From IMG/VR virus record IMGVR_UViG_3300043908_006005: DNA of 64,000 nucleotides; one strand, written 5' to 3'. The DNA is from an uncultured virus (IMG/VR IMGVR_UViG_3300043908_006005) (Duplodnaviria > Heunggongvirae > Uroviricota > Caudoviricetes). The notes beneath the pieces were generated by a model. The model searched no databases, was not told the DNA's origin, and was given only the letters and a program-made list of their open reading frames with translations. The stretch's first letter is position 1. Each line of letters starts with the position of its first letter. Shown in pieces: positions 27,087 to 48,343 of the stretch. A program made the position numbers and the translations under genes.

Positions 27087-27950
27087 ATGAACATAAAAAG
27101 AAATCATATTTATCTAGTCACTGGAGCAAGCGGCTTTTTAGGTGAATCTCTTGTCGGAGAAATACTTTCTAGGGGCGGCCGCGTCAGGGCAATGTCAAGA
27201 AACGAAGGTAAGCTAATAGAGCTTCAACAAAAATTCAATTCAGACATACATATTGTAACTGGAGATGTTTGCAATAAAGTAGATGTTGTCCAATCGTTGA
27301 GTGGCGTTATGGGTGTGTTTCATTTGGCCGCATTTAAGCATGTTGGAATGGCCGAACGTCTTCCGAATGAATGCACAAGAACTAACGTAACGGGCTCTTT
27401 AAATATACTGCACGAAACACTTACCAGGAAAGAAATTGATTTTGTTATTGGTATTAGCACTGACAAGGCCGCTCAAGTTTCTGGCGTTTACGGAGCAACC
27501 AAGCTCTTGATGGAAAGGGTATTTTCTCAATTTGAAAAAATAAACCCATCTATTAAATACAGAATAGTAAGATATGGAAATGTTCTATATTCTACTGGCT
27601 CTGTTTTGTGCAAGTGGAAATCACTATTACAAAAAGGAATGTCGGTGACAATAACGGACCCAAACGCCACCAGATTTTTTTGGACTAGGGAACAGGCTGT
27701 TGATTTAATATTTCAATGCTTAAGAGACGCAAAGGATTCTAAGCCTTTCGTCCCAGATATGAAGGCCATGACTATTGGAGACCTCCTCCTTGCAATGCAC
27801 AAAAAATACTCTCCTAAAGGGGCAAAGCTACAAACAAACGCCATCGGATTGCAGCCAGGAGAAAATTTGCACGAAAAAATTATTGATGATGGCCCTTATT
27901 CAAATGAAGTTGAGATGTTCACAGTAGAAGAAATAATGGAGATGATTTAA
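27087..27950 (+). CDS. UDP-GlcNAc 4,6-dehydratase-like SDR (PseB/CapD family)
   Basis: TGASGFLG, HLAAFKHV, STDKA, YGATK, RYGNV. Confidence 0.88.
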   Translation: MNIKRNHIYLVTGASGFLGESLVGEILSRGGRVRAMSRNEGKLIELQQKFNSDIHIVTGDVCNKVDVVQSLSGVMGVFHLAAFKHVGMAERLPNECTRTNVTGSLNILHETLTRKEIDFVIGISTDKAAQVSGVYGATKLLMERVFSQFEKINPSIKYRIVRYGNVLYSTGSVLCKWKSLLQKGMSVTITDPNATRFFWTREQAVDLIFQCLRDAKDSKPFVPDMKAMTIGDLLLAMHKKYSPKGAKLQTNAIGLQPGENLHEKIIDDGPYSNEVEMFTVEEIMEMI

Positions 27951-29530
27951 TGAAAGTAGCCGGATTCTGCTCTGGACATGACTGTGCATATGCAATACTA
28001 AAGGACGGAATACCAGTATTGCACAACGAGCTAGAAAGATTTACCAGAGAGAAGGAACCTCTTGGAGATTCCATTGGGTTTATGTTTGACAGCTATGAAG
28101 AACACAGCGACATAAAACACTTTGCTCATTGCTTCGACACATACAACGGAGGCATTGAGAAAAGATATCCAGAAACTCTAAGCAAAATGATGTCCATAGC
28201 TAACCAAAATGGTGGCGATTATTTTATACCAGGACATCACGAATCACATGCAGCAAATGCATTTTTCTCTAGCAATTTCGACGAAGCGTTGATAGTAAGT
28301 ATTGATGGTGGAGGAAGGGATTACGGCATCGACAAAGAAGAGGTTATAGCAACCTTCACTGCATGGGAAGGAACAGGGACAAAAGTAAATAAAATACAAA
28401 TACTTCCTGGAAATGTAGTGAACATTGGCGTGTCTTGGACGGAGTGTACAAAACAGATATTTGGTCTTTCTGGCGGTTATCCAAAAGGAAATCAGGCTGG
28501 AACTGTAATGGCTATGGCTTGCATGGGAGACGCAAACAAATACTGGAAACACTTTTATGACAGCGGGCTTAGAGATTATAAGGGTATAAACTTTAAAGCA
28601 TTAAGACAACAAGCGTTGAAAGGCGAACAAGAAATGTTTGACATCGCCGCCGGACTCCAAAGGGCAACAGAGAAAATTACAAAAAGTATTTTAGACACTT
28701 ATGTCGAAAGATACCCTTATAAAAATCTATGTTTATCAGGCGGAGTTGTTCTTAATTCTGTAATGGTCGGCAAAATGTATGACTGGTATCCACAAATAGA
28801 AAATATATATGTATGCCCAGTACCCTATGATGCTGGATTAGCTATAGGAGCAGCACAATATGTTTACCACCACGTATTAGGAAACCCGAGGATTGACTGG
28901 CAGGATAATGCATCCCCATATCTTGGCAAAAAGTATTCTAGACAACATATACTTTCAGCTATTCAGTCGTCTGGATTTCATTGCGAAGACAGCTTTTCTA
29001 ACGATGATGCAGCTAAGTTACTGTCAAAGGATGACAATATCATATCGGTTTTTGCTGGCGGCTCCGAGTCTGGAAGAAGAGCTCTAGGAAACAGAAGTAT
29101 TCTAGCGGACCCTAGAAGCCCAAACATGAAAGACATCATAAATGAAAAAGTTAAGCACAGACAATGGTTTAGGCCTTTCGCTCCATCTGTTCTTAGAGAA
29201 GATGTTTCTGATTGGTTTGAAAAAGACGTTGATTGCCCGTACATGACAGCCGTTATAAAATTCAAAAAGTCTGTTGTTGAAAAAGTTCCTGCGGTTGTGC
29301 ATTTGGATGGCACTGGTAGACTACAAACGGTTACAGAAAAAGACAATCCATGGTACTATAACTTTATTAAAAAATTCAAAGAGTATAGCGGGGTTCCTAT
29401 AGTCCTGAATACCAGTTTTAATGACAGGGAGCCTATAGTTGAAACACCAGAGCATGCAATAGCCTGTTTTGCACAAACAGACATTGACTATCTTTACTTT
29501 GCGGACGAGGAGTTGTTAGTAAGAAAATGA
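27950..29530 (+). CDS. NodU/CmcH-family carbamoyltransferase
   Basis: GHD, HHESHA, IDGGG, GGVVLN, DAGLAIG, RALGNRS, FRPFAPS, HLDGTGR, LNTSFN. Confidence 0.92.
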   Translation: MKVAGFCSGHDCAYAILKDGIPVLHNELERFTREKEPLGDSIGFMFDSYEEHSDIKHFAHCFDTYNGGIEKRYPETLSKMMSIANQNGGDYFIPGHHESHAANAFFSSNFDEALIVSIDGGGRDYGIDKEEVIATFTAWEGTGTKVNKIQILPGNVVNIGVSWTECTKQIFGLSGGYPKGNQAGTVMAMACMGDANKYWKHFYDSGLRDYKGINFKALRQQALKGEQEMFDIAAGLQRATEKITKSILDTYVERYPYKNLCLSGGVVLNSVMVGKMYDWYPQIENIYVCPVPYDAGLAIGAAQYVYHHVLGNPRIDWQDNASPYLGKKYSRQHILSAIQSSGFHCEDSFSNDDAAKLLSKDDNIISVFAGGSESGRRALGNRSILADPRSPNMKDIINEKVKHRQWFRPFAPSVLREDVSDWFEKDVDCPYMTAVIKFKKSVVEKVPAVVHLDGTGRLQTVTEKDNPWYYNFIKKFKEYSGVPIVLNTSFNDREPIVETPEHAIACFAQTDIDYLYFADEELLVRK

Positions 29531-30285
29531 TAACTATGCTAATAGGCACTTGCGATTCTTATTGTTTTTTATGGGAAAACTTTGCTTTGCTATGCAATGC
29601 TAACTGGTCTGTGGAATCTAAAAAGATATTTGTCTCTGAAACCAAACGCGCTGAAATTGATGGGTACGACACTCATCTGCCAGGGAAGATTTGCTGGACA
29701 AACAGGATTATAAGCGCTTTAGAAGAAGTTAAAACAGATTATGTGTTCTTTGTTCTTGAGGATTATTTTTTAACAGAGCATATAACACAAGAAGAAATAG
29801 ATTTATACATAGAATTTATGGAAGAAAAAAAAGCAAACAAAATAATGATAGAGCCGCTTTCTTACCTAATGAAATATAACATGAAAAATCACAACAAGTT
29901 CAAGGGCAGGTTTGTTTATAAGGTTGAAGATTATAGCGATTTTATTTCTTCTATTCAGCCTTCACTCTGGAGAAAAGACTATCTTTTACAACTATTGAAA
30001 CCCGAATGGTCTCCTTGGGACTTTGAGTGTACCGGAACAGATTTAATTAAGGGCAAAGACAATAGGGTATATAACATATCCGGACCTAGAGGCATGAGAA
30101 CAGAAAAGATATACTGGAATGCCATAATAAACCCCAAGATAGCGGAGACTCTGTATCCCGAGCATCTAGAAAAAGAGAAGCAAAAAAGAGAAGGCCAACC
30201 TATCTCTGGCAATATAATTAGCCCTGGATGGCCTGATATAAAAAAACGATTTAACCTAAAAGACATGGGAGGATTTTATAAATGA
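29527..30285 (+). CDS. GT-A-like hypothetical glycosyltransferase
   Basis: TCDSY, FVLEDYF, QPSLWRK, SPWDFE. Confidence 0.5.
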   Translation: MITMLIGTCDSYCFLWENFALLCNANWSVESKKIFVSETKRAEIDGYDTHLPGKICWTNRIISALEEVKTDYVFFVLEDYFLTEHITQEEIDLYIEFMEEKKANKIMIEPLSYLMKYNMKNHNKFKGRFVYKVEDYSDFISSIQPSLWRKDYLLQLLKPEWSPWDFECTGTDLIKGKDNRVYNISGPRGMRTEKIYWNAIINPKIAETLYPEHLEKEKQKREGQPISGNIISPGWPDIKKRFNLKDMGGFYK

Positions 30286-30297
30286 ATAACAGAATAC

Positions 30298-30327
30298 TTG
30301 ACAACTACAATAACTCTGATATATTCT
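30298..30327 (+). promoter_or_regulatory. sigma70-type promoter
   Basis: TTGACA followed by TATATT (16-nt spacer) or TATTCT (18-nt spacer) in an intergenic gap. Confidence 0.6.
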
Positions 30328-30381
30328 ATATACAAATCACGTTTTACGCTAATTACACCGAAGAGGATGTTTGGACTTACT

Positions 30382-31515
30382 ATGGCTAATATACTAATAC
30401 TTGGAGCGGGTGGCATTGGACTCCCAATCGCGTCGGCCCTAAAGCACGAAGAATACAATCTTGTTCTGTCTGATTGCTCTCAAGACGCTATTGATAAAGC
30501 TAAGGATTATTTCGGTAGAACTAATTTTGACAGTCAATGCTTGCTTGACTTTCATGTTGGCGAAGCAGCGGATTATCTGGATAAGAATAAATTAGAATTT
30601 GACATAGTAGTATCAGCTTTGCCATACTACATGAACAAAGAAATAGCATTCGCGTGTGTTAGCGCTGGCGTATCTTACGTTGACCTTGGCGGGCATGTAG
30701 AGACAACCAATTATATTCGCAAGATTGCTGAGGAAGATGGCTACGCTCCAGTAGCTAGCGACCAAGGATTAGCTCCAGGTTTAGTTAATATCTGTGCCGA
30801 AGAGGCTTTTGAAGCTGTTAAGGAAAACAAATACCGTAGTGCAAAAATTAAGATGGCCGTAGGCGGTCTTCCAGAGAATAGAGGCCTGAACCCACTAGAC
30901 TATATTGTTACTTGGTCTATTGACGGGTTGATTAATGAATATAAGGGAGAAGCAGAAGTTCTCTTGGGAGCAGAAAAGAAGAACGTACCCACGCTCACTG
31001 GCCTAGAAACTATGACTGTTGACGGAGATGAGTTAGAAGCGTTTTACACAGCCGGTGGAAGTTCTCACACAATTCAATCCATGTTTAACCAAACTTCCCG
31101 TCCAATACCTGACGTTACATACAAGACGTTGCGATACCCAGGACATATGAATATGGTGAAGTGGCTCATGGAAGAGATTGAGATGGACCACATTGATTTG
31201 ACACATCTGTTTAAGTACGGCTGTGCGGCGTTAGACGAAAAGGATATTGTGAAGTTCTATGTCGAGGCTACTAATGGGAACTTGTCTTACAAAAGAGAAC
31301 ACACATTCTATGCAAGCGAAGAGTTCTCTGCTATGCAGCGTTCAACCGCATACAGCGCAGCAGCGGCGATTCAGACAATGTATATAAATAGGCCGATACC
31401 AGCCCGCTCTTTTGCCCTGGACTATTCATACTTCTGTAACGATTTGTTTCATGAGCGTTTCAGAGACGCTTTAAACAGAGACCGCCCAGAGAAAGAGAAA
31501 GAGTGGGTGGTCTGA
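30382..31515 (+). CDS. saccharopine dehydrogenase / lysine 6-dehydrogenase family oxidoreductase
   Basis: ILGAGGIG, SALPY, YVDLGG, GLAPG, GGLP, WSIDGLINEY, KTLRYPGH. Confidence 0.85.
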   Translation: MANILILGAGGIGLPIASALKHEEYNLVLSDCSQDAIDKAKDYFGRTNFDSQCLLDFHVGEAADYLDKNKLEFDIVVSALPYYMNKEIAFACVSAGVSYVDLGGHVETTNYIRKIAEEDGYAPVASDQGLAPGLVNICAEEAFEAVKENKYRSAKIKMAVGGLPENRGLNPLDYIVTWSIDGLINEYKGEAEVLLGAEKKNVPTLTGLETMTVDGDELEAFYTAGGSSHTIQSMFNQTSRPIPDVTYKTLRYPGHMNMVKWLMEEIEMDHIDLTHLFKYGCAALDEKDIVKFYVEATNGNLSYKREHTFYASEEFSAMQRSTAYSAAAAIQTMYINRPIPARSFALDYSYFCNDLFHERFRDALNRDRPEKEKEWVV

Positions 31516-33476
31516 TGACATTTTTCCCACTTCATGTTCACAGTCACGACAGTCTTCTTGATGGCCTTAGTAAGCCTAAAGATATTGCCAAGAGATGCAA
31601 AGAACTTGGTTTAAAAGGGTGCGCTTTAACTGACCACGGTGTTCTCTCTGGCGCAGTCAGCTTCGTAGAAGCCATGAAGTCTGCCGGACTAAAACCTATA
31701 CTTGGATGCGAGTTCTATATCTGTGAGGGCGACCCTACTGACAAGGAGAATAGGACTCGCTCCAACACACACCTTGTAGTCCTTGCCAAGAACAAACAGG
31801 GGTGGCAAGACCTTATCGCTGCAACCTCTCAGTCCAATCACCCAGACTATTTCTATTATGCCCCAAGACTAGACTTAGCTACACTCAAGAAGTTCTGCAC
31901 AGGCAACTGGATTGCGTTTAGCGGACACATGGGTTCACACCTAGCTAACGAAATGTTCATAGACCACAAAGAAGCGTACTCTGCGCAAAGCTACGACGAA
32001 GCAACTAGGATGGTTGACAAAGACTGGGTAAACAAGGTCTCTGCTAAAGCTAAAGAGCTTGAGGATATTTTTGGTAAAGGAAACTTCTTTCTAGAAATAC
32101 AACTAATAGACGTAGACAATCTACCCGCTTCTGGCGTGGTCGCAAAAGGACTTAGATACCTAAGTAAGAAAATCGACATTCCGTGTGTAGCAACGCCAGA
32201 CGCCCACTATGCTTATCCAGAGGATGCAGATGACCAAAGGGTTCTTTTGTCTAACCACCCAAGCATAGACACACCGCTCAAGGACATCTACAAGAAGATG
32301 GTTTCAGGAGACGATATAAGCCTTGGAGCTTTCTTTAAGTCCAGAAACTATTACATTCCTGGTCATGACGAAATGATGAAACTTCACACAGAAGAAGAGG
32401 TTGAAAATGCAGACAAGATTGCTGATATGTGCGAAGACTACACAATCACCGGAAAGCCAATGCCGCCTAGATTTCCATTGCCAGAAAAAGTAACAGCAAT
32501 TGAAAGGCTAAGAGAAAGGTGTCGTGAGGGCTGGCAAAAAAGATGGCCCGCCATTAAAAGCGTGATAGATAGCAGCGACCACACAAAAGAAGAGTACGCT
32601 GAAAGATTTGAGATGGAAATATCTGTTTTGGAGAACGCAAAGCTAGCAGACTACTTCTTAATTGTTGATGACATTATCCATTGGGCCAGGAAGGACGGCC
32701 AGCTTACAGGCGCCGGTAGAGGCTCCGCTGATGGTTCTCTAATACTATATCTTTTAGAGGTTGGCCATATAGACCCAATCAAACACGATTTAATGTTCGA
32801 GCGATTTTACAACGCCGGACGAAATACAGCAGACAGAGTGTCACTTCCTGATGTGGATATGGACTTCGAGAAGCTTGGTCGTGAGCGTATAATTGGCTAT
32901 ATAAACGACAGGTTTGGCGAAGATAGGGTTTCTCAAATGATTACGTTCAGCAAGATGCAAGGACGTTCTGTATTGCAAGACGTAATGAGGGCGCACAGTG
33001 CGTGTAGCCCAGAAGAAAGAAACAGAATCACAAAGAACATACCTGATGAAGCAGACATTTCTGACCAACTTGAAGATATGCGTCAAGCAGACAAAGACTC
33101 TGGGGGAGATGGTAGCGCTAGCATTATTCAGTGGGCTTTGGAGAACAGAGAAGAGGACTTGAAACAGTGGTGCTATATTGGCGAAAACGGAAACCTGCAA
33201 GGGCCAATGTCAAAGATATTTGAGCAATCAATACGCATGGAGGGAACAAAGCGCTCTAGAAGTAAGCATGCCGCTGGAATTGTGATTGCCAACGAACCTC
33301 TTGCGAAGATTTGCCCTATGGTGCATGATAAAAGCACTGGCGAAAGCATTGCCGGAATGGAAATGAATGACCTTGAATCTATGGGTCATATCAAGTTTGA
33401 CATTCTTGGAATCGCAATTCTTGATAAGATACATGGAGTGCAAGACCTATTATCTTCGGGAGAATTCGGTGATTGA
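31515..33476 (+). CDS. dnaE: DNA polymerase III alpha subunit, N-terminal part (PHP, palm, thumb)
   Basis: LHVHS, LTDHG, DAHY, GRGS, PDVDMDF, HAAGIVI, KFDILG; ORF ends shortly after the third catalytic Asp. Confidence 0.93.
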   Translation: MTFFPLHVHSHDSLLDGLSKPKDIAKRCKELGLKGCALTDHGVLSGAVSFVEAMKSAGLKPILGCEFYICEGDPTDKENRTRSNTHLVVLAKNKQGWQDLIAATSQSNHPDYFYYAPRLDLATLKKFCTGNWIAFSGHMGSHLANEMFIDHKEAYSAQSYDEATRMVDKDWVNKVSAKAKELEDIFGKGNFFLEIQLIDVDNLPASGVVAKGLRYLSKKIDIPCVATPDAHYAYPEDADDQRVLLSNHPSIDTPLKDIYKKMVSGDDISLGAFFKSRNYYIPGHDEMMKLHTEEEVENADKIADMCEDYTITGKPMPPRFPLPEKVTAIERLRERCREGWQKRWPAIKSVIDSSDHTKEEYAERFEMEISVLENAKLADYFLIVDDIIHWARKDGQLTGAGRGSADGSLILYLLEVGHIDPIKHDLMFERFYNAGRNTADRVSLPDVDMDFEKLGRERIIGYINDRFGEDRVSQMITFSKMQGRSVLQDVMRAHSACSPEERNRITKNIPDEADISDQLEDMRQADKDSGGDGSASIIQWALENREEDLKQWCYIGENGNLQGPMSKIFEQSIRMEGTKRSRSKHAAGIVIANEPLAKICPMVHDKSTGESIAGMEMNDLESMGHIKFDILGIAILDKIHGVQDLLSSGEFGD

Positions 33477-34059
33477 ACTAGAGCAATTAAGGAAGGAATA
33501 CTCTTCCTGTGAAATATGCTCTCTGTGCCCAAGCAAGACCGGCATAAATGGAGTAGTAAAATCCAGCGGACCCGCATCGTCTCTAGCTATAGTCGGAGAA
33601 GCTCCTGGTGCTGACGAAGATGCTGCTGGAGAGCCCTTTGTAGGAAGGGCTGGAAAAATGCTTGACAAACTTCTAGAAGGGGCTAAAATAAAGAGGCATC
33701 AGGCGTTTATTACGAACTCTGTAAAATGTAGACCAACACAAAATCAAGGAAAAAAGAACAGAGCCCCAACGCCAGAAGAATGTCAGTCTTGTAGGCCGTG
33801 GCTTTATAAAGAGATTGGATTGATTAAGCCAAAGGTTGTAGTTACTTTAGGTAAAGTGTCAACTGAATCAGTTTTACCGCTTCCAAAAAATTTTACACTC
33901 GGGGATTACGTAAACAAGCCACATGAAGCGAAAATTGGCGATAATACATATACAGTCGTTCCTTGTTGGCATCCTTCCTATTTGATGCAGCACGGAAGAA
34001 ATAAGTTTAACGAAGCGGTAGATTGTTTTAAGCTAGCAAAGAAATTGGTATTGAAATGA
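33469..34059 (+). CDS. family-4 uracil-DNA glycosylase
   Basis: CEIC, GEAPG, PFVGRAG, NSVKCRP, HPSY; GTG at 33469. Confidence 0.92.
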   Translation: MIELEQLRKEYSSCEICSLCPSKTGINGVVKSSGPASSLAIVGEAPGADEDAAGEPFVGRAGKMLDKLLEGAKIKRHQAFITNSVKCRPTQNQGKKNRAPTPEECQSCRPWLYKEIGLIKPKVVVTLGKVSTESVLPLPKNFTLGDYVNKPHEAKIGDNTYTVVPCWHPSYLMQHGRNKFNEAVDCFKLAKKLVLK

Positions 34060-34784
34060 ATTATAATTCTATATGCTGTTACGATTACGAAACGGGTTCT
34101 CCTAATCCCTCTACATGCTCTATTATACAGATAGCGGCAGAGATGATACATGGAAGAAATCTTAACGTGGTAGACAAGTTCTCCGCATATGTTAGACCTG
34201 ATTGGGATGACACGGAATCTACAACTGACGAAACAATAGACTGGCATTGCAGAAACAAGGGCGTCTCAAAAAAGAAGTTTGTGGATATGTTAAATGAATG
34301 CCCTCCAATCAATATCGTATGGAAAAACTTCTCGTCATGGGTAGACAAATACAATTGGGGAAAAACAAATAAGACTGGGTTTCATGCGCCCGTCTCTGCT
34401 GGATATAACATACTTGGATTCGATAACCCCATAACGGATAGGCATTGCAAATTATTTGGGCCAACTGAAAAAGACAGGCGAAATGGGGCAGAAAAGCCAA
34501 GGGTATTTAATCAGATATACAGCTTTGATTTAATGCAGCATGTCTGGTATTGGTTTGAAAATAACAGCGAGCTTAAGAACCAAAAGCTAACAACCGTCTT
34601 AGAGTACATGGGGGTTCCAGAAGAAGTTACCGCAAATGCTCATGACGCAGAGTTTGACGTTGAGTGGACATCTAAGGTTATCATAAAGCTGATGAAGACA
34701 TCTAGATGGATGACTGGGTGGAATGAACAAAATCAGAAAAGAAGGCTTGAATTTGCTAATGCCTTTGCACAGGAGTTTAAATGA
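34056..34784 (+). CDS. DEDDh 3'-5' exonuclease (epsilon-like)
   Basis: DYET (Exo I), GYN..FD (Exo II), AHDAEFD (Exo III). Confidence 0.88.
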   Translation: MNYNSICCYDYETGSPNPSTCSIIQIAAEMIHGRNLNVVDKFSAYVRPDWDDTESTTDETIDWHCRNKGVSKKKFVDMLNECPPINIVWKNFSSWVDKYNWGKTNKTGFHAPVSAGYNILGFDNPITDRHCKLFGPTEKDRRNGAEKPRVFNQIYSFDLMQHVWYWFENNSELKNQKLTTVLEYMGVPEEVTANAHDAEFDVEWTSKVIIKLMKTSRWMTGWNEQNQKRRLEFANAFAQEFK

Positions 34785-36481
34785 GTAAAGTTAGATGGCC
34801 GTGTGGATGTGAGCTTCCAGTAAAGAGTTGCTCTGACACACCAATGGTGATTAACGTGCAGTTCGGAGACACTCTGCCCAAAGGTATTGAGCTAGATGTT
34901 TACAACATAAATCTTAATTGCGAAGCTACATGGGACATGATATGTAGCGGTAGAACCAAGGGTGTATTTCAGCTAGAAAGCGCGTTGGGTCGTCAGTGGG
35001 CAAAAAAACTTGAGCCAAGAAACATACAAGAGCTTGGAGCATTGGGCGCGCTAATTAGGCCTGGATGCCTTCGTGCAATGAGCGGCAGCCCTCCCAAGAG
35101 TATGACTCAAAGATATTGTGACAGGAAGCATGGGGTTGAAGAGGTGGTTTATCCTCATGAATCTTTAGAGCCAATACTTAAAAACACTCAGGGCGTTCTA
35201 ACATTTCAAGAACAAGCCATGAAGATAGCTGTAGTTCTCGCCGGTTTCAATGAGCAGCAAGCTGATATTCTTCGCAAGGCCATCGGAAAAAAGAAGGCCG
35301 ACGTTATGCTTGAAGTTAAGAAGTCGTTTCTTGAGGGCGCTGAAAAGACCGGCATTGTTTCTCGGGAGCTAGCTGAAGAAATTTTTGGGTGGATTCAAGA
35401 ATCTCAAAGATACTCTTTTAACAAAAGCCATGCGGACGCCTACGCTCTTAATGGGTACTGGAGCGCTTTTTGCAAGACACATATGCCGCTCGAGTTCTAT
35501 TGCTCTTGGCTTAGAGGCGCTTCGTGGAAAGGTGCGAAGCAATACGAAGAAATATATGACCTTGTAAATGACGCGAAGTTAAACAACATAGATGTTTTAC
35601 CACCAACACTGGCAGATAAACGCAATACTTTCTACATTAAAGACAAAAAGGTTTACTTTGGTCTTTCCAGCATTAGGGGTATAGGCTCTGCCGTAATTCA
35701 GAAGATGATAGACAAGCTCGCTGATGTTGAGAAAAATTTAGGCAGAGGTATCGGAGCTTGGATGTGGATGGAATATCTTAAATACGGGACTGAGTGTGTA
35801 TCATCCAACGTAACCGAAGCAATGATAAAGGCCGGAGCTCTGGATTTTATGGACCGCTCACGAAATGAAATGTTGTACCAATACTCCATATGGTCACAGC
35901 TTAGCCCTACGGAAAAGAAGTGGATTGTAAGTGAATACAAAGGAAACAGCCTTATGGAGGCTCTAAAAGAATGTCAGCCAAAAAGAGTTATGAAAAACAA
36001 ACAACAAATTGCTGGAGGCGGGTGTGTAAACGACAAGAGGTCCGAGTTTGTAGGAGACCTAATCACTTCCCTTAAAAATCCTCCACATAAACTAGAAGAT
36101 TCTATGGACTGGATTGCTTGGAATGAGCAAAAAACTCTAGGCGCGCCTATCACTTGCAGCAGGGTTGACGCTGTTGAAAGAGGCATAGAAGCAAACTGCA
36201 CTTGCAAAGAATATATAACCACTAAAAGAAAAGACTATATGAAGTTTGCCGTTGAGATTACCAAGGTTAAAGTTGTAAAAACAAAGAGCGGAAAAAACCC
36301 TGGTCAAGAAATGGCTTTTCTTACGGTTGAAGATAATAGCTGCTCTCTTGACGATGTTGTTTGCTTTCCCGATAAGTTCCAGGAATGTAGGGATGCTATT
36401 TACGAAGGTAACACTATACTGATTCAGGGAGACAGGGGAAGAAACGACTCTTTAGTTATTGGTCAAATTTGGCAAATTTAG
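34781..36481 (+). CDS. dnaE: DNA polymerase III alpha subunit, C-terminal part (fingers, HhH, OB)
   Basis: GVFQLES, ALIRPG, FQEQ, LRKAIGKK, YSFNKSHA, FGLSSIRGIG, MAFLTVED. Confidence 0.93.
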   Translation: MSKVRWPCGCELPVKSCSDTPMVINVQFGDTLPKGIELDVYNINLNCEATWDMICSGRTKGVFQLESALGRQWAKKLEPRNIQELGALGALIRPGCLRAMSGSPPKSMTQRYCDRKHGVEEVVYPHESLEPILKNTQGVLTFQEQAMKIAVVLAGFNEQQADILRKAIGKKKADVMLEVKKSFLEGAEKTGIVSRELAEEIFGWIQESQRYSFNKSHADAYALNGYWSAFCKTHMPLEFYCSWLRGASWKGAKQYEEIYDLVNDAKLNNIDVLPPTLADKRNTFYIKDKKVYFGLSSIRGIGSAVIQKMIDKLADVEKNLGRGIGAWMWMEYLKYGTECVSSNVTEAMIKAGALDFMDRSRNEMLYQYSIWSQLSPTEKKWIVSEYKGNSLMEALKECQPKRVMKNKQQIAGGGCVNDKRSEFVGDLITSLKNPPHKLEDSMDWIAWNEQKTLGAPITCSRVDAVERGIEANCTCKEYITTKRKDYMKFAVEITKVKVVKTKSGKNPGQEMAFLTVEDNSCSLDDVVCFPDKFQECRDAIYEGNTILIQGDRGRNDSLVIGQIWQI

Positions 36482-36482
36482 C

Positions 36483-36512
36483 TTGACATTTTAATGGTTT
36501 AGCTGGTACTTT
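36483..36512 (+). promoter_or_regulatory. sigma70-type promoter, twin of 43804
   Basis: TTGACA-18nt-TACTTT with TGn extension. Confidence 0.65.
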
Positions 36513-36519
36513 ATTATAT

Positions 36520-37053
36520 ATGATGAAAATACACAAAAAACTCAAAGAAGCTCTTAAAAAGCACAATTATGAAGTTATTCTTAGTGCTAATAGCAGCGAG
36601 ATAAATTCGATTAAGGCGTCTTTTCCCGAAAGAAAACAAAAACCTTCTTTCAGTGGGTTTGGGGCTACGTATCAGTACATACCAGAGCTTGATTCAGACT
36701 GTCTTTTCTTTAGAATAGGAAACGGCGAGTACAGCACAATACAATGCCCAAGATATTCATTAAAAGAAGTCTTGTTTATGGATATAGAAAAGGTCTGTGA
36801 TGCCATAGGCTACAGCCAAGACCTTATTTCTTTTAGTCTCAATGATAAAGATGTTGACCAAAAAACATTCAAAAGAAACATACTGGAAGACGATTTAACA
36901 GATGAAGAAAAAGAGAAACAGGAAGTTTTGGAAGGCCTTTGCGAGTTAGCAAAAAAGGAGGGCTTCTCAGAAAAGTATCTTGAACAATCAAAGTCTCTTG
37001 GGCTGCAAGACGCATACGATGTACTGCAAGACATGTATTTGAGCGAAATATAA
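36520..37053 (+). CDS. hypothetical protein
   Basis: ORF immediately after promoter. Confidence 0.65.
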   Translation: MMKIHKKLKEALKKHNYEVILSANSSEINSIKASFPERKQKPSFSGFGATYQYIPELDSDCLFFRIGNGEYSTIQCPRYSLKEVLFMDIEKVCDAIGYSQDLISFSLNDKDVDQKTFKRNILEDDLTDEEKEKQEVLEGLCELAKKEGFSEKYLEQSKSLGLQDAYDVLQDMYLSEI

Positions 37054-38750
37054 TGAAAAGAAAACTTCGAATATTGTGGTGCGGTGAAGCTAGCTTCTTA
37101 AATACTGGGTACTCTGTTTACGCAAAAGAGGTCTTAGGGAGACTGCATAAAACAGGAAAGTACGAAATAGCAGAACTAGGGTGCTATGGCTCGACACAAG
37201 ACCCTCTTTGCAAAAAAGTTCCCTGGTCATTTTATTCAAACTTGCCTTACGGCGAAGAAGAAAACAAGCAGTATAAGTCAAGCCCTCAAAATCAGTTTGG
37301 GGAGTGGCGATTCAACGAAGTTTGCCTCCACTTCAAACCAGATGTGGTCATAGACATACGAGACTGGTGGATGATGGAATTTCAGGCTAGGTCTGAGTTT
37401 AGACGCTTTTTTGATTGGCTTATTATGCCAACTATTGACTCTGCTCCTCAAAACGAACAATATCTGAATACATATTCTGAAGCAGACGGTGTTTTTACTT
37501 ACTCAGATTACGGAAGAGATGTCCTCGAAGAATCAATGGGAGAATCAATAAAATTTATTGATTGCGCTCCTCCTGGAGCTGATTTTAATATTTTAAAACC
37601 CGCATCAAACAAAATAGACCACAGGTCAAGCTTTGGCTTCATGGACAGCATCAAGATTGTCGGCACAGTAATGAGAAACCAAAGAAGGAAACTTTACCCC
37701 AATCTAATGAAATCCTTCAGGGACATGATAGACGAAAATAAGTCTATGTCTGAAAACACGTTTCTTTACATGCATACATCCTATCCAGACGTAGGGTGGA
37801 ATTTGCCTTACTACATTAAAAAATATAATCTTGGAAACAAGATATTGATGACATATAAATGCCAAAACTGCGGGCACTTCTTTCCTTCATTTTACCAAGA
37901 CTGTAAGACATGCTGCCCAAAGTGCGGCTCTCTCTCTGCAGTTTTTCCTGGGACGACCTTTGGTGTAAGCACGGAAGAGCTTGGCCAGATTATAAACTTT
38001 TTTGATGTGTATGTTCAGTATTCTGTATGCGAGGGGTTTGGAATGCCTCAAGTAGAAGCTGCCGCCTGTGGAGTTCCTGTGATTACCGTTGATTATTCTG
38101 CCATGTCAAGCGTTGGAAAGAAAATCAGAGCAGATTTTGTGGAGCCTAAGACATTTTTCTGGGATTCTCCAACCCAATCAGAAAGAGCCATACCGAACGA
38201 CAGCCAACTAATAGAAAAAATGAAAAAAATCCTTAACCTTCCTTCTGGAGTTAGGACAAAGAAGGGGATGGACTCAAGAGCGTTAGCGCAAAAGCACTAT
38301 TCTTGGGATAAAACCGCAAGTATATGGGAAAAACACTTAGATACAATTGAGCCTAAAAATATGAACGAGACTTGGCTCTCGGAGGCTGAAATACTTGAGC
38401 CAAAAGAAAAATTTCCCAAGAATATAAATAACAGCGATTTCGTGGAATGGTGTGTAAAAAACGTACTCAGAGAACCGCTTAACCAATACGTCTTAATGGG
38501 AATGCTCAAGGATTTAAATTACGGAAAATCTACTGCTTGTGAAGGAGCTTTATATTACAATGCAGACAGCTACGTTAGTCAAGCGGTTCACTCGAAGTTT
38601 ACTAGAGAAGACGCGTTCGAAAAACTGAAGGGCATTAGAGAGTTAAAGAATTATTGGGAAAGGCAAAGAGAGGCTGTGAACGATGGTTCTTTGGAGCAAA
38701 GAGAAACTTCATCTTGCATACGCAATCACAAACCGGGAGAAATCTCATGA
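37053..38750 (+). CDS. GT4 glycosyltransferase with inserted Zn ribbon
   Basis: TGY, RNQRRK, EGFGMPQVEAAACG; CQNC...CPKC insert. Confidence 0.88.
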   Translation: MKRKLRILWCGEASFLNTGYSVYAKEVLGRLHKTGKYEIAELGCYGSTQDPLCKKVPWSFYSNLPYGEEENKQYKSSPQNQFGEWRFNEVCLHFKPDVVIDIRDWWMMEFQARSEFRRFFDWLIMPTIDSAPQNEQYLNTYSEADGVFTYSDYGRDVLEESMGESIKFIDCAPPGADFNILKPASNKIDHRSSFGFMDSIKIVGTVMRNQRRKLYPNLMKSFRDMIDENKSMSENTFLYMHTSYPDVGWNLPYYIKKYNLGNKILMTYKCQNCGHFFPSFYQDCKTCCPKCGSLSAVFPGTTFGVSTEELGQIINFFDVYVQYSVCEGFGMPQVEAAACGVPVITVDYSAMSSVGKKIRADFVEPKTFFWDSPTQSERAIPNDSQLIEKMKKILNLPSGVRTKKGMDSRALAQKHYSWDKTASIWEKHLDTIEPKNMNETWLSEAEILEPKEKFPKNINNSDFVEWCVKNVLREPLNQYVLMGMLKDLNYGKSTACEGALYYNADSYVSQAVHSKFTREDAFEKLKGIRELKNYWERQREAVNDGSLEQRETSSCIRNHKPGEIS

Positions 38751-39916
38751 AAGCCCTTTACGTAGGATGCTACAAAGACGGAACAGGATGGGGCAATGCT
38801 GCTCAAGGGTACATCTTAGCCCTAGATAAGGCTGGAGTTGAGGTTGTTCCAAGGTTTATGAAATTAAACAACAGGGAAATAGATGTACCAGAAAGAATAA
38901 AAGAATTAGAGGGTAACGACTCAAAGAACTGTGATGTAGTTATACAGCATGTGCTTCCACACCACTCTTATTTTAGGGGAGAGTTCGATAAAAACATATC
39001 TCTATACGTAACAGAAACCAGCAACTGTAATACTTCTTTGTGGCCTGAAAAAATAAACTTAATGGATGAGGCGTGGGTTCCGAATACGTACATGGCAGCC
39101 GAGCAGGCGAAAAACAGTAATATATTCACCCCTCACTATGTAGTGCCGCATGCTTTTGATATGGCTAAGTATCAAACAGAATACGAGCCACTAGAAATAC
39201 CTCAGACAAAAGACACTTTTGTTTTCTATTATATTGGCGAAAACACAAAGAGAAAAAATTTAGGGTCGATACTCAAGGCCTTTCACTTGGAGTTTAAAAA
39301 ACATGAGCCGGTTTCTCTTTTAATAAAATCTCACTCACCTGGATTAAGCGAAAAAGAATCGGTAAAGTCCCTGCAAAATATATGCGAGGCGGTGAAAAAG
39401 GGCCTAAAGCTTTACAGAAAAAGCGCTGACTACAAGAAAGAAATTTTCATATGCGACTATTTGACAGACGAACAAATCATGAGGATACATCAGACTTGTG
39501 ATTGCCATGTTTCTGCCTCTTTTGGCGAAGCCTGGAGTATACCGACTTTTGAAGCAATGGCTATGGGAAACACTCCAATATGCACAGATACAGGAGGCCC
39601 TAGAGACTATCTATCGGGAGCAGGGTATTTGGTTGACTCTTCTCAAGAACCGTGTTTTGGCGTGATGGACACTTTCGATTATATATATACAGGCGCAGAA
39701 AATTGGGACACACCCAGTATAAGGCATCTCAGAGAATGCATGAGAGACGCTTTTGAAAACAAAGAGTCTAGAGTAAAAATGGCGGATGAAGGCAGGAAAA
39801 AGTCCTATGATTATTCATACGCTAGTGTTGGAAATACGATGAAGAAAATACTTCTAGATAACGTCGAGCCTTTTAAAGCAGAGCGTAAGGGCAGCTTGAT
39901 GGGGGATATTATTTAA
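38747..39916 (+). CDS. GT4 glycosyltransferase
   Basis: RKNL, GEAWSIPTFEAMAMG. Confidence 0.88.
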   Translation: MKALYVGCYKDGTGWGNAAQGYILALDKAGVEVVPRFMKLNNREIDVPERIKELEGNDSKNCDVVIQHVLPHHSYFRGEFDKNISLYVTETSNCNTSLWPEKINLMDEAWVPNTYMAAEQAKNSNIFTPHYVVPHAFDMAKYQTEYEPLEIPQTKDTFVFYYIGENTKRKNLGSILKAFHLEFKKHEPVSLLIKSHSPGLSEKESVKSLQNICEAVKKGLKLYRKSADYKKEIFICDYLTDEQIMRIHQTCDCHVSASFGEAWSIPTFEAMAMGNTPICTDTGGPRDYLSGAGYLVDSSQEPCFGVMDTFDYIYTGAENWDTPSIRHLRECMRDAFENKESRVKMADEGRKKSYDYSYASVGNTMKKILLDNVEPFKAERKGSLMGDII

Positions 39917-40935
39917 TGAGTGTTTTTCATATGAAGAAGATACTAAGAGATGCAACTAGGCACCCCGAAGAGCCATTAAATATCCTTACTTTCCCAACGC
40001 ACGAAAGATATCAAACCAATTTGGCTCTTACCGGACACAATTTTTATCTGTGGCAGAAACCAGGAGTGATTAAGCCTTGGGTCAAGGACTATGGCCCAGT
40101 ACCACAAAACACAACCCTGCTTAATGAGGGGAAAGGCGATGAACAACTACCATTAAACCTGGACATAGACATAGTATTAAGTCAAAACAAATTCGGGCAG
40201 TTTGAAATCGCATCTAAACTTGCGGAAGCCCTAAATGTTCCATTAATTAGCTTAGAGCACACACTACCGCATACCTCATGGGACAAATCACAAGTAGCGA
40301 TGTTGAAGGAAATGCGGGGAGATATAAATGTGTTTATCTCAGAATACAGTCGGGATTTGTGGGGCTGGAAAGAAGGCGAGGCCATGATAGTGCATCACGG
40401 CATTGACACTAACCTATTCTCTCCATCTAACGTCCAAAGAGAAGAGAGGGTGCTGTCTGTTGTTAATGACTGGATAAATAGGGACTGGTGCTGCGGTTTT
40501 AGTCTATGGAAGCTCATAACAGGATATCCCGACACAACAATTCCAGTGCATGTAATAGGTGATACGCCTGGATTATCTAAACCGGCCAGCTCAACAAAAC
40601 AGCTTGTTGAAGAATATAGAAAAAGCAAAGTATTCATGAACACTTCTGTGGTTTCACCAATACCAACCTCTCTACTTGAAGCGATGTCATGCGGATGTGC
40701 TGTAGTATCAACCTCTAATTGCATGATTCCAGAAATAATAGAAAACGGCAAAAACGGATACATATCAAACGTACCTCTTGAGCTTAAAATGTATGCGGAA
40801 TTGTTGCTAAATAACGATGAGGTTGCAGAGGAAATGGGCAAGCACGCCAGAGATACAATACTAAACAACTTTTCAATAGAAGATTTTGTGTCTAATTGGA
40901 ATAACATATTTTTTTCTTGTCTGGAGCAAAGATGA
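39916..40935 (+). CDS. GT4 glycosyltransferase
   Basis: HGIDT, PTSLLEAMSCG, EIIENGKNGY. Confidence 0.88.
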   Translation: MSVFHMKKILRDATRHPEEPLNILTFPTHERYQTNLALTGHNFYLWQKPGVIKPWVKDYGPVPQNTTLLNEGKGDEQLPLNLDIDIVLSQNKFGQFEIASKLAEALNVPLISLEHTLPHTSWDKSQVAMLKEMRGDINVFISEYSRDLWGWKEGEAMIVHHGIDTNLFSPSNVQREERVLSVVNDWINRDWCCGFSLWKLITGYPDTTIPVHVIGDTPGLSKPASSTKQLVEEYRKSKVFMNTSVVSPIPTSLLEAMSCGCAVVSTSNCMIPEIIENGKNGYISNVPLELKMYAELLLNNDEVAEEMGKHARDTILNNFSIEDFVSNWNNIFFSCLEQR

Positions 40936-41417
40936 CTAAAGTAAATTTAATTCATGGAGAGGGGGATGTACTAGATACACATTTGAACATAAACCCCTTC
41001 ACAAAGAAAACAGAGGAAGGCCTGCTTGTTCGGGGAGATTTGACTAATATAGACAAGTACGTTGACGACGCAGAGGCAGATGAAATTATAGCCATGGACG
41101 TTATTGACTACATCCCAACAACAAAAACAGCAGACGCATTATCCAACTGGATTTCAAAGCTCGCTATTGGAGGTAGGATTGTTATAGGCGGAATTGATAT
41201 TTTTGTAGTGTCTAAATCTATATCTGACTACTCACTAGACATAGCGTCTGCAAACCTTTTAATACATGGCGAGCAAGACCAGCCGTACCTTATCAAGAGG
41301 GCGTCTTTTTCCGCCTATGACTTGTCTGAATATCTAGAGTTTACGCACGGCTTAGGAATAGTTAAAAAAGACATAACAAATTACAGAATGTTTGTGGAGG
41401 CGCAGAGAACGATATGA
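40932..41417 (+). CDS. methyltransferase-fold protein, degenerate
   Basis: ADEIIAMDVIDYI...KLAIGGRI; no clear GxG motif I. Confidence 0.5.
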   Translation: MTKVNLIHGEGDVLDTHLNINPFTKKTEEGLLVRGDLTNIDKYVDDAEADEIIAMDVIDYIPTTKTADALSNWISKLAIGGRIVIGGIDIFVVSKSISDYSLDIASANLLIHGEQDQPYLIKRASFSAYDLSEYLEFTHGLGIVKKDITNYRMFVEAQRTI

Positions 41418-42418
41418 ATATAATAACTGAAAATGAAGCGAACGAACAGGCTCAAAATGACAAAATAATACAGACCTGTTGCAACGGATGTGTTTTCGCC
41501 AAGCCTCAGCCTGACGACAATACAAATCTGGACGACTACTGCTCTGCTGGAAGGCTATCTAAGTTCAAGGAAGCTGGCGCAGAGTTACTTAGTATCAGGC
41601 TGGAGACAGAAGATGATGATGATAGCGGCGAGGCGCTAAATTATAAAGCAGTAAATGAAAGGGCGTGCAATCTTTTAAGAAGTGTTCGATGGAAGGCGAT
41701 TATGGAACACATGGGTGTCGAAGACCTTTTAGCTAAAGCCAAAAAAGAAATCGAAGTGTCTTGTACGCTGATTATCTATATTGATGAGACTAAAGCGATA
41801 ACAGACAAAAAAGAGGTTGAGGAGATTGTATCTTCAGTTATAAAGACTTACAGGAGCATAGAATTAAGCGATATTCAGCCAAAAAATGTTTCTATAATAA
41901 ATCCATGCATAATGCCAACTGAGTTTGTTAATATATTCAGGAAAAAAATTGTAGAGATGTACAATGACCCTGAAATACCCCAGGAAACAAGAACCCCTTG
42001 GAACATGGAGTATATACCATATCAGGATGCTGAAGAACTCGCTAAACTTGAAACCGCAGGAAAAGAGAAATCACTTCCGCCTGAACAGTTTAGGCTCTCT
42101 TTTATAAAAAGACACATTGACCTTTCAGCTAAGGAGAGTAAGGCAGGATACTGGTCATTCTTTTTCGCTGGAAATTCTGTGCCTAAAAATTATTTAAGCG
42201 ACATAAATAATTACATTAATGTTGATTTGAATAGACTGATAGCTCTTAGGGGAGATGACGATATTAGTCCTGGAATGCTTGTGCAAAATCTCATACACAA
42301 ACATCTATCAGGAAACAAAGGCGGTTATATCTTAGACAAAATAGACCAACTTACGAAAGACCAAGAATGTCCGGAAATTCTCAAGAAAATATCGGAAGTG
42401 GTAAAGAACTTCGAGTAA
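41414..42418 (+). CDS. hypothetical protein with N-terminal Cys cluster
   Basis: CCNGCVF...C; located within the glycosylation cluster. Confidence 0.6.
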   Translation: MNIITENEANEQAQNDKIIQTCCNGCVFAKPQPDDNTNLDDYCSAGRLSKFKEAGAELLSIRLETEDDDDSGEALNYKAVNERACNLLRSVRWKAIMEHMGVEDLLAKAKKEIEVSCTLIIYIDETKAITDKKEVEEIVSSVIKTYRSIELSDIQPKNVSIINPCIMPTEFVNIFRKKIVEMYNDPEIPQETRTPWNMEYIPYQDAEELAKLETAGKEKSLPPEQFRLSFIKRHIDLSAKESKAGYWSFFFAGNSVPKNYLSDINNYINVDLNRLIALRGDDDISPGMLVQNLIHKHLSGNKGGYILDKIDQLTKDQECPEILKKISEVVKNFE

Positions 42419-43122
42419 CAGTAGTTATACCTTGCCACAACCACGCTGACATGATTGTTGGCGCAATAGATAGTGTGTTGTCTCAAGATTATGAGCCCAT
42501 TAATATAGTCGTGATGGACGATGGCTCTACAGACAATGTGAGCGAAGCTATTAGCGGCAAAGAAGTTTTTTATTTAAGGAACGAAATAGCAAAGGGTCCG
42601 TCTGCCGCCAGAAACAAAGCTATAGAGCATATGTGGGATAAATCAGATGTTTTTATGATGCTTGATGCGGACGACAGGTATTTAGAAAGCAAGGTTTCAA
42701 AATCTGTAAACAAATTTTGCGAAGATAAAAAGCATATAGGCATAGTATATACAGACGCAATTATTAGAAATATAAATACAGGCACGGAAATTCATGAATT
42801 CAGAGAGCCTTACACCAGGGAGAGAATAGAGCAAGAATGTATAATATCGAATACCCCCTTAATTAGCAAAGAGGCTCTGGCTTATTCTGGAGGATATGAT
42901 GAGGGGATGCGTACCTGCGAGGACTGGGATTTATGGCTAAGAATAACGGAAGGATTCGTTGCAGTTCATATACCCGAAACGTTGCATGTGTATAGTGTCA
43001 CCGGCAAAAATTCTTCAGACACTGTTAGTAAAGAAGTTTGGAATGAAAACTGGGAAAAAATTAGACAAAGAATAAATCAAAGGAAAAATGAGAGCAGCAG
43101 TAAAAAACGTCACAACAATTAA
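42367..43122 (+). CDS. GT2 glycosyltransferase
   Basis: VVIPCHN, DDGSTD, GPSAARN, LDADD, EDWDLW. Confidence 0.92.
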   Translation: MSGNSQENIGSGKELRVTVVIPCHNHADMIVGAIDSVLSQDYEPINIVVMDDGSTDNVSEAISGKEVFYLRNEIAKGPSAARNKAIEHMWDKSDVFMMLDADDRYLESKVSKSVNKFCEDKKHIGIVYTDAIIRNINTGTEIHEFREPYTRERIEQECIISNTPLISKEALAYSGGYDEGMRTCEDWDLWLRITEGFVAVHIPETLHVYSVTGKNSSDTVSKEVWNENWEKIRQRINQRKNESSSKKRHNN

Positions 43123-43801: not shown

Positions 43802-43803
43802 AG

Positions 43804-43833
43804 TTGACATTCAACTGGTTTAGGTGGTACAAT
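43804..43833 (+). promoter_or_regulatory. sigma70-type promoter, twin of 36483
   Basis: TTGACA-18nt-TACAAT with TGn extension. Confidence 0.7.
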
Positions 43834-43838
43834 AATAT

Positions 43839-44153
43839 ATGAGAAGCATTATAGATATTAGCAAGCTAAAAAGACACACAAAGATTATAGTGGAAACAGA
43901 GGAGACTGTTTTTGAGATAGTCGTGTCTGGACCGAAAAGCAGGGGAATTTTTGTAACTGGAGGAATAGCTTTCATAAGGAGAACAAAAGCTACGCTAGAC
44001 AACGTTATAGAGAAAAGAAAGTCTATGTTATTTTTATATTCTGACAAAAACGGAGCTCCGATGTCGTTTAATTCATCTAAGGTTGTAAGCGCTAGCGTGT
44101 TTGCTTCTGACGGCTCATGGTATTATGACGCTATAGAGAAAAAAGATAAATGA
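43839..44153 (+). CDS. hypothetical protein
   Basis: ORF starting 5 nt after the -10 element. Confidence 0.65.
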   Translation: MRSIIDISKLKRHTKIIVETEETVFEIVVSGPKSRGIFVTGGIAFIRRTKATLDNVIEKRKSMLFLYSDKNGAPMSFNSSKVVSASVFASDGSWYYDAIEKKDK

Positions 44154-48340: not shown

Positions 48341-48343
48341 TTT

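Follow-up and report, generated by a model that had tools for sequence, protein, structure and literature searches.

The gene for the alpha subunit of DNA polymerase III (Pol III alpha), dnaE, is carried in two separate pieces on a 64,000-nucleotide (nt) stretch of DNA from an uncultured marine phage (IMG/VR record IMGVR_UViG_3300043908_006005; hereafter the window), and the pieces enclose two other genes, one for a family-4 uracil-DNA glycosylase (UDG) and one for a DnaQ-like 3'-5' exonuclease (EXO). We found no intein, no intron and no frame relationship that could rejoin the halves, so that the working polymerase is most probably a heterodimer of an N-terminal and a C-terminal chain held together without a covalent link. 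From the analyses below we consider it likely that this phage uses such a two-chain replicase, with the exonuclease as its dedicated partner.

An earlier note, made from the sequence of this DNA alone, had proposed a two-chain replicase that was possibly assembled stoichiometrically with uracil-excision and proofreading subunits. The intein-free split, its conservation across a large clade, the purifying selection on its parts and the finding of no polymerase other than DnaE in five of five large relatives all support the two-chain part of that proposal. The UDG as a stoichiometric subunit is not supported: it is missing from two close relatives (L006 and L007) and occurs in only 4/80 and 5/79 of the related loci in two scans.

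The locus and the two halves of DnaE

Five successive genes on the plus strand overlap or abut, by 1, 8, 4 and 4 nt along the row, as read from the list of open reading frames (ORFs) and the junction sequence. The features are:

31515..33476, + strand: dnaE-N (653 aa), with the PHP domain, the palm with three catalytic Asp, the thumb and the first fingers helix (Pfam, TIGR00594, Taq alignment)
33469..34059, + strand: family-4 UDG, about 196 aa from its GTG (Pfam UDG, TIGR00758)
34056..34784, + strand: EXO, DEDDh (DnaQ-like) 3'-5' exonuclease, 242 aa (phrog_192, invariant DEDDh residues, fold)
34781..36481, + strand: dnaE-C (566 aa), with a leader, the remaining fingers, (HhH)2 and a C-terminal beta-barrel (Pfam, TIGR00594, E. 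coli alignment, model)
34781..34879, + strand: DnaE-C leader of about 33 residues (MSKVRWPCGC...), without counterpart in single-chain DnaE
33469..33476, + strand: DnaE-N/UDG junction, an 8-nt overlap (GTGATTGA; junction sequence)
34056..34059, + strand: UDG/EXO junction, an ATGA overlap (junction sequence)
34781..34784, + strand: EXO/DnaE-C junction, an ATGA overlap with AGGAG 6 nt upstream (junction sequence)
end at 31515, + strand: saccharopine-dehydrogenase-like gene, directly upstream of dnaE-N

ORFs, junction sequence and domain matches thus confirm what the earlier note had described, a dnaE in two ORFs with a UDG and an exonuclease nested between them and all four genes overlapping. 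The two dnaE ORFs lie 1.3 kb apart with two other genes in the gap, and do not form the single polypeptide that characterizes the DnaE-type family. Pfam, NCBIfam and PHROGs are concordant on the identities of the four genes.

Two gene starts differ from the first positions open to translation. The ATG of dnaE-N shares 1 nt with the TGA of the dehydrogenase-like gene; the GTG at 31503, given as its start in the ORF list, is probably not the true one, because relatives start with MTFFPL. The UDG ORF is open from 33367, and its likely start is the GTG at 33469, which has GGAGA 5 nt upstream and is also the start of the orthologue in the related locus L017; the NCBIfam UDG models align from ORF residue 38-48. 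At the upstream end of the row, where the window has the 1-nt overlap, locus L006 holds a 292-aa Cys-rich ORF (L006:3443-4321) with no Pfam match between the dehydrogenase-like gene and dnaE-N.

Aligned to full-length DnaE, the two products are continuous. DnaE-N matches Pfam PHP (PF02811, 1.5e-36) and DNA_pol3_alpha (PF07733, 6.7e-68), and DnaE-C matches DNA_pol3_finger (PF17657, 1.3e-44; profile 16-165, from residue 34) and HHH_6 (PF14579, 1.8e-9). They cover, respectively, positions 1-572 and 576-1021 of TIGR00594 and 42-614 and 619-1073 of phrog_405; against solved structures, DnaE-N aligns to Taq alpha 1-626, and DnaE-C from Taq 639 and to E. coli alpha 584-892. By these alignments the two halves together are a whole Pol III alpha, exactly complementary and with no segment missing, and the break is placed in the surface loop after the first fingers helix, at the palm/fingers boundary (about Taq 627-638, just before E. 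coli 584).

The N-half stops 21 residues past KFDILG, close to the 20 or so first reported, and GVFQLES begins at DnaE-C residue 61; the leader that precedes it had been put at about 40 residues and measures about 33-37. Pfam and PDB alignments of DnaE-C begin only at residue 34-38. In its predicted structure (mean pLDDT, the per-residue model confidence, 85.7) the leader falls below 50 at residues 1-3 and 16-37, and strands at the C-terminus (487-565) form a beta-barrel. Pfam gave no match to an OB domain in the window's DnaE-C; PF01336 (OB) is among the precomputed annotations of many of its relatives. A [WF]xCGC motif in the leader is common to the window, L011 and L078 lineages only and is missing from most others.

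The catalytic residues D446, D448 and D629 (ATG numbering) are invariant in 31/31 aligned N-halves. All nine positions that we take, from the Taq alignment, to be the metal ligands of the PHP domain (31515-32200) are occupied in the window, reading HHDHEHHDH. These ligands are complete in the window and the long-N lineages and lost in a short-N lineage (about 523 aa), so proofreading arrangements within this dnaE family may differ.

Inteins, introns and assembly

Intein families gave no match to the full-length proteins at E<=0.01 (Pfam, NCBIfam), and Intein_splicing, Hint and LAGLIDADG gave none at E<=5 in the last 119 residues of DnaE-N or the first 100 of DnaE-C; the profile searches agree with the absence of visible intein motifs first noted. 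As a positive control, the same Pfam models found Intein_splicing and LAGLIDADG_3 in the C-halves of five relatives (P0173, P0174, P0190, P0191 and P0200). Those inteins sit at two internal fingers sites, not at the break, with a LAGLIDADG domain in one. Inteins are present as well in some unsplit relatives (P0274, P0275, P0277, P0281 and P0284). At the window's own break there is neither the Cys or Ser that starts an N-intein nor the His-Asn and nucleophile that end a C-intein, and the N tail aligns to DnaE itself. The gap holds the UDG and the DEDDh exonuclease and no free-standing homing endonuclease gene. Rfam, at its gathering threshold and across the whole window, returned only a tRNA (3215-3285) and no intron.

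Misassembly of the locus, named as a possible refutation in the earlier note, is excluded by independent seawater contigs that bridge every junction. Twenty-four seawater metagenome runs each contain 94% or more of the words sampled from 31500-36500, 15 of these runs being possible sources of the record and 9 not flagged as such. Logan contigs from four unflagged runs show no joints and no indels on this stretch, and three match it with zero differences (X16 record 5, 32846-34830; X18 record 15, 33138-36500; X21 record 21, 33546-35047). Contigs of other seawater runs diverge from the window at 33448 (near the N/UDG junction), 34738 (near the 3' end of EXO) and 35614 (inside dnaE-C), which suggests co-occurring strain variants.

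Distribution of the split and of its cargo

The same split point, with the exonuclease in the gap, recurs in related phage contigs. A first scan of IMG/VR with an exonuclease alignment kept the best 80 of 209 related stretches; a second, seeded with unsplit relatives, gave 79 further loci, at least 8 contigs being common to both scans. DnaE-N lies upstream of EXO in 80/80 loci of the first scan and DnaE-C downstream in 75/80, the remaining five contigs ending within about 500 nt past EXO. In the second scan EXO lies between two dnaE halves in 60/79 loci, one locus is unsplit and the remaining 18 run into a contig end (60/61 assessable). Both pieces are retained wherever the contig allows, as in other genes in pieces, and the break point is identical in all aligned N tails and C heads. 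Well over 100 loci, with proteins that have diverged by about 50%, share the layout. The spacing between N, EXO and C is variable, from -59 to about 3400 nt, and the gaps contain unrelated ORFs; no conserved frame relation or bypass is therefore possible.

The clade to which the window belongs is very large, and none of the cultured phages in INPHARED is close to it. Within the length band covered by the search, the C-half matched 2941 protein clusters at E<=1e-20; the best 120 of these are mostly 509-590 aa long and come from contigs of up to 183 kb. Among INPHARED phage records EXO had no match at E<=1e-3, and the matches of DnaE-N and DnaE-C were at most 33% and 29% identical; the best was a gut phage fragment with a single 1170-aa DnaE ORF. 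In Bacillus phage vB_BceM_WH1 DnaE is annotated as three coding sequences, with 725 and 400 bp of unannotated sequence between them; this seemed to be another kind of case and was set aside.

A variety of genes occupy the junctions of relatives. The commonest is a micro-protein of about 72-87 residues without a Pfam family, found in the gap between N and EXO in 74/80 and 34/79 loci (for example L025:4786-5004, L029:4783-5004 and L078:4298-4519), with a motif of roughly ..YKSV.FSGC.IE..-S.CNL-..YQV.S..-F..LY..-D.A..KF.E.K. A profile of it, run on six frames of the window, L004, L006, L011 and L012, found nothing significant (best E 0.53), and the idea that the DnaE-C leader derives from the micro-protein was dropped for want of a significant profile match. 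Other cargo includes Endonuclease_7/HNH-type genes (L034, L065), a MUG113/T5orf172 gene (L087), family-2 glycosyltransferases (L023, L081), TylF/Methyltransf_24 methyltransferases (L048, L064, L081, L093), sugar epimerases (L074) and UDP-glucose dehydrogenase (L077, L087). In L012 (L012:3326-6177, 36% identity) DnaE-N is broken again, into ORFs of 432 and 287 aa, and a LAGLIDADG-type gene (L012:4668-5348) lies in the gap of this second break.

Unsplit relatives and the history of the break

Contiguous homologues exist for this gene in pieces, and the split forms are all broken at one defined point. Unsplit DnaEs are found in P0271-P0285 (1144-1151 aa), L122 (1139 aa) and L176/L177 (1146 aa); the 1144-1151-aa proteins share 42-46% identity with the N-half of the window, the same range as split relatives. 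The linker across the break is short in these proteins, and P0271 is strikingly like the window's N tail joined to the post-leader C-half. The exonuclease accompanies them in other positions. In L122 (5286-9402) the orthologous gene, conserved C-terminal tail included, is 4 nt upstream of the unsplit dnaE, and in two loci of the P0271 lineage (L176:5001-11335 and L177:5001-11349) it is about 2.2 kb downstream, past a glycosyltransferase gene. The EXO gene thus takes three different positions relative to dnaE.

A maximum-likelihood tree of DnaE-N (quick IQ-TREE search; 73/74 rows, L104 being dropped as too gappy) recovered the aquatic clade with support of 100, the unsplit forms falling into two groups nested among the split ones with supports of 98-100. 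The split state changes at least three times on this tree, which recombination within dnaE could mislead. In an approximately unbiased (AU) test, forcing all split rows into one group, a group named after the tree had been seen, cost 91 log-likelihood (lnL) units (p-AU 0.0002). With the outgroups unsplit, the simplest history suggested by the tree would be one ancient split followed by two re-fusions; lateral spread of a split allele is the alternative.

The exonuclease

EXO matches phrog_192, 'DNA polymerase exonuclease subunit' (2.1e-20), and falls just below the 24-bit cut-off of Pfam RNase_T (1.1e-4, 23.3 bits). Its residues D10, E12, D123, H196 and D201 (the DxE of Exo I, the D of Exo II and the Hx4D of Exo III) are invariant in 18/18 orthologues, and the same DEDDh residues are kept in a further comparison (8/8) that includes an orthologue from an unsplit context. 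The best solved match of its profile is the PolC exonuclease domain 2p1j (3.7e-7). The AlphaFold model (pLDDT 77.8) has a DnaQ-like fold, and Foldseek matched it to DinG-exo, CRN-4, PolC-exo, DnaQ and RNase T (E 7.8e-9 to 1e-6). Since EXO accompanies dnaE in every assessable related locus, its constant linkage suggests that it is most likely an epsilon-like proofreader.

In the protein collections searched, EXO was found as a protein of its own. A profile search gave 340 protein clusters at E<=1e-30. Among the best 150 of its 1960 matches the lengths run from 115 to 282 aa, so that none of these carries EXO in a longer chain, and a dedicated search for longer proteins, weak evidence by itself, was also empty. 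A fused ancestor with the exonuclease domain inserted in the loop was considered and rejected, no fused form having come out of either search.

The uracil-DNA glycosylase

The window UDG matches Pfam UDG (6e-35) and exceeds the cut-off of TIGR00758 UDG_fam4 (137.1 bits against 125.3); it is under the cut-offs of the Arch_udg and UdgX models. Its translation contains GEAPG, HPS and a Cys-x2-Cys pair, which we take to be the motifs of family-4 enzymes. A UDG gene occurs in 4/80 loci of the first scan, all in the window group, and in 5/79 of the second (L111, L123, L125, L126 and L128). Where found, it is always between N and EXO, with 37-48% identity and in three separate parts of the DnaE tree, so that it occupies this position in no fewer than three lineages, namely the window group, L111, and L123/L125/L126/L128.

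In L006 and L007, in which DnaE-N and EXO are 91-96% identical to those of the window, there is no UDG and the DnaE-N stop abuts the EXO start. Because such close relatives, and the majority of the family, do without it, the UDG is best taken for an accessory that some lineages have and not for a core part; it cannot be essential to the enzyme. A physical link to the polymerase may nonetheless exist, since fused DnaE-UDG proteins are known: phrog_4335 matches both DnaE-C (residues 194-313, profile 14-128) and the UDG (profile 260-370), as a fused form would, and such proteins are described in PMC3919608.

Selection and other polymerases

Pairwise ratios of nonsynonymous to synonymous substitution (dN/dS), against relatives 92-96% identical to the window, were 0.034 (vs L004) and 0.041 (vs L006) for DnaE-N, 0.027 and 0.013 for EXO, 0.020 and 0.047 for DnaE-C, and 0.042 for the UDG (vs L004); dS is partly saturated (1.3-2.6 in several genes) and the ratios are approximate. 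By this measure all four ORFs are under strong purifying selection. The surrounding genes are those of a replication module, with a DnaB-type helicase, primase, RecA/UvsX-like protein, deoxynucleoside monophosphate (dNMP) kinase, deoxycytidine monophosphate (dCMP) deaminase and ribonucleotide reductase.

In each of five relatives, 119-161 kb in size (CheckV completeness 60-100%, two at 90% or more), there were exactly one palm and one fingers match and no match to PolA or PolB. The pairing of either half with a second, complete dnaE, which would have undone the proposal, thus finds no support in related near-complete genomes. The beta-clamp N-domain was found in 0/5 of these relatives.

A probable two-chain replicase and its alternatives

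The reading we favour supposes that dnaE is permanently broken, and that an N-half with PHP, palm and thumb and a C-half with fingers, HhH and beta-barrel are made separately from one operon. The two chains would associate non-covalently across the palm-fingers interface, as split NrdA of phage Aeh1 and gp43A/B of phage 25 do. The overlaps of 4-8 nt may couple translation so that the chains are made together. The DEDDh enzyme may serve as proofreader, perhaps beside an active PHP domain in this lineage.

Several observations weigh against this reading. That this phage has no second polymerase would follow from its relatives, its own genome being seen for 64 kb only. The selection estimates carry the saturation of dS given above. 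The unsplit relatives within the clade (P0271-P0285, L122, L176 and L177) mean that the split is not required for function and has no demonstrated advantage. And because DnaE-N keeps all of its PHP metal ligands, the DEDDh enzyme need not be the sole proofreader, nor a proofreader at all.

It is very improbable that the halves are joined after all, whether by an atypical or very short split intein, by frameshift or read-through, by bypass or by RNA splicing, possibly into a PolC-like enzyme with an inserted exonuclease. In favour of joining, the ATGA overlaps put each following gene in the -1 frame, members of this gene family are invaded by inteins, and translational bypass has been raised as a formal alternative for fractured genes (PMC2677866). 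However, the DnaE-N tail aligns to DnaE nearly to its end with no Cys- or Ser-initiated block after it, the 33-residue leader of the C-half lacks a terminal His-Asn and nucleophile and is missing in most relatives, intein and Hint models found nothing even at E<=5, no group I or II intron family was found with Rfam, the gaps between N, EXO and C run from -59 to about 3400 nt with unrelated ORFs, and no EXO-containing protein exceeds 282 aa in the best 150 of 1960 matches. It is harder still to believe that the split gene is a decaying or non-functional remnant in a phage replicated by the host polymerase or another phage enzyme. Such a reading can draw on the fact that the absence of another polymerase is judged from relatives and not from the window's own complete genome, but it would have to accommodate dN/dS values of 0.013-0.047, invariant catalytic residues, a layout kept over about 50% protein divergence and well over 100 loci, the lack of PolA, PolB or a second DnaE in 5/5 large relatives, and the position of dnaE in a replication module with DnaB-type helicase, primase, RecA/UvsX-like and ribonucleotide reductase genes.

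It is possible, though we doubt it, that the split persists selfishly, the loop serving mobile genes as a place of insertion and the split allele spreading, cargo included, between co-infecting phages by homing-like gene conversion. The junctions of relatives hold Endonuclease_7/HNH-type, MUG113/T5orf172 and LAGLIDADG genes, the split state requires at least three changes on the DnaE-N tree and a single split group is rejected by the AU test (delta lnL 91, p-AU 0.0002), the EXO gene takes three positions, and genes in pieces are known to arise when free-standing endonucleases invade genes that have no intein (PMC2677866, PMC2988022). Yet the window has no endonuclease gene in or beside the split, the exonuclease is no homing enzyme, and the tree may be distorted by recombination, with AU-test groups named post hoc; this history moreover concerns the origin of the break and is compatible with a two-chain replicase. 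We think it unlikely that all four proteins form one stoichiometric machine with the UDG as an integral part, such as a uracil sensor or processivity factor. The end-to-start overlap of all four genes, purifying selection on the UDG, its recurrence between N and EXO in at least three lineages, the fused DnaE-UDG forms (phrog_4335; PMC3919608) and the absence of a beta-clamp gene from the five large relatives would all fit such a machine, but the UDG's patchy presence and its absence from L006/L007 would not, and elsewhere the same junction holds unrelated cargo (glycosyltransferases, methyltransferases, sugar epimerases, homing-endonuclease-like genes).

The two-chain reading could be extended. 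The break itself might be useful, the new chain ends and lineage-specific additions (the CGC leader, the micro-protein of about 75 residues) docking the exonuclease, and the UDG where present, into an obligate replicase of three or four chains that proofreads beside its active site. We regard this as quite unlikely. If true, the arrangement would be a non-covalent, convergent counterpart of the inserted exonuclease of PolC, and switches between split and unsplit states would mark changes in how the proofreader is attached.

Other features of the window

A 565-aa GT4-type glycosyltransferase (37053-38750) comes after dnaE-C, within the replication module, and does so in nearly all related loci of sufficient length. 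It is part of a very large set of sugar-modification genes that is interleaved with the replication genes (1-2468, 27087-31515 and 37053-49312) and includes a carbamoyltransferase, several NAD-dependent epimerases/dehydratases, GT1/GT2/GT4 transferases, a DegT-type aminotransferase, a nucleotidyltransferase, a sulfotransferase-like protein and the saccharopine-dehydrogenase-like protein. Four long ORFs of 1753, 1319, 623 and 408 aa without a Pfam or PHROG match lie on the minus strand (50779-56040, 56683-60642, 60655-62526 and 62571-63797). Near the other end of the window are a PhoH-like ATPase (2490-3185), the one tRNA (3215-3285, Rfam 31.4 bits), two sigma-70 region 4 proteins and a ClpP-like protease (3323-3928, 6141-6833 and 6808-7305).

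Significance

If the halves reassemble, these phages would have a natural and very abundant two-chain C-family replicase, which would show that Pol III alpha can work with its chain broken between palm and fingers. The unsplit orthologues, at 42-46% identity and with the same exonuclease encoded upstream or downstream, are matched natural controls. They allow direct tests of the communication between palm and fingers, of the way in which a C-family polymerase without a detectable clamp gene recruits its proofreader, and of whether gene order and translational coupling serve assembly. Annotation is affected too, since thousands of aquatic phage proteins labelled "DNA polymerase III alpha subunit" each represent only half of the enzyme. 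Homing-endonuclease-like and auxiliary genes have repeatedly inserted at the broken loop. No new principle is involved, as split phage enzymes without inteins have been described before.

Comparison with known systems

The closest precedents are NrdA of phage Aeh1 and gp43 of Aeromonas phage 25 (43A/43B), two split enzymes whose pieces co-purify, assemble and are active without inteins (PMC2988022, PMC2677866). In Aeh1 nrdA, with its mobE insertion, and in gp43 of Aeromonas phages 25 and 44RR, an essential enzyme of DNA metabolism is likewise encoded by two ORFs on one strand without an intein, with foreign ORFs or untranslated sequence in the gap and contiguous homologues in related phages. 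The window differs in that its predicted enzyme is of the C-family (DnaE) and not NrdA or a B-family gp43; in that the constant gene in the gap is a partner DEDDh exonuclease rather than a homing endonuclease; and in that the arrangement is ancient and very widespread, as against one or a few phages.

A dnaE in two pieces is known from cyanobacteria and from marine 'fractured' loci (PMC2677866). The latter resemble the window in having adjacent pieces on one strand, a gene between them and an origin in marine samples. The cyanobacterial and fractured genes, however, carry N- and C-intein parts for trans-splicing, with a free-standing endonuclease in the fractured loci, whereas the window has no intein parts. 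The break points of the fractured loci are intein integration points and differ from each other (PMC2677866). In T4-like (group 2.2) jumbo phages a minimal Pol III alpha is, as here, made as two stand-alone proteins that have no inteins and are predicted to reconstitute an enzyme (Iyer et al. 2021, PMC7824862). That version is without PHP and other domains, its genes are far apart and it accompanies a family-B replicase (PMC7824862), whereas the window polymerase is full-length, encoded in one locus and the only polymerase found.

The pairing of a C-family polymerase with a DnaQ-type DEDDh exonuclease links the window to PolC of Firmicutes and to the alpha-epsilon core of E. coli. The E. coli gene for epsilon is unlinked to dnaE, whereas the window has its exonuclease gene within the split dnaE. 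PolC carries its exonuclease as a domain covalently inserted in the PHP domain, a different site (PMC3919608); the window EXO is a separate protein. An association with a PF03167 UDG is likewise found in the extra DnaE of some Yersinia pestis and Salmonella enterica strains, in which an archaeal-type UDG domain stands at the C-terminus in place of the OB and C-terminal domains (Timinskas et al. 2014, PMC3919608); in the window the UDG is a separate gene between the halves and dispensable in close relatives.

We found no description of a split dnaE with this exonuclease in the open-access literature searched. Intein-less genes in pieces, split-intein and fractured dnaE (PMC2677866) and a split minimal Pol III alpha (PMC7824862) are already known. 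What is new is a full-length C-family replicase broken in the palm/fingers loop, a partner gene as the constant occupant of the gap, and the persistence of this layout in a very large clade of aquatic phages with natural unsplit controls. The nested UDG, the intact PHP domain, the mapping of split and unsplit states and the three positions of the exonuclease gene are what the window adds.

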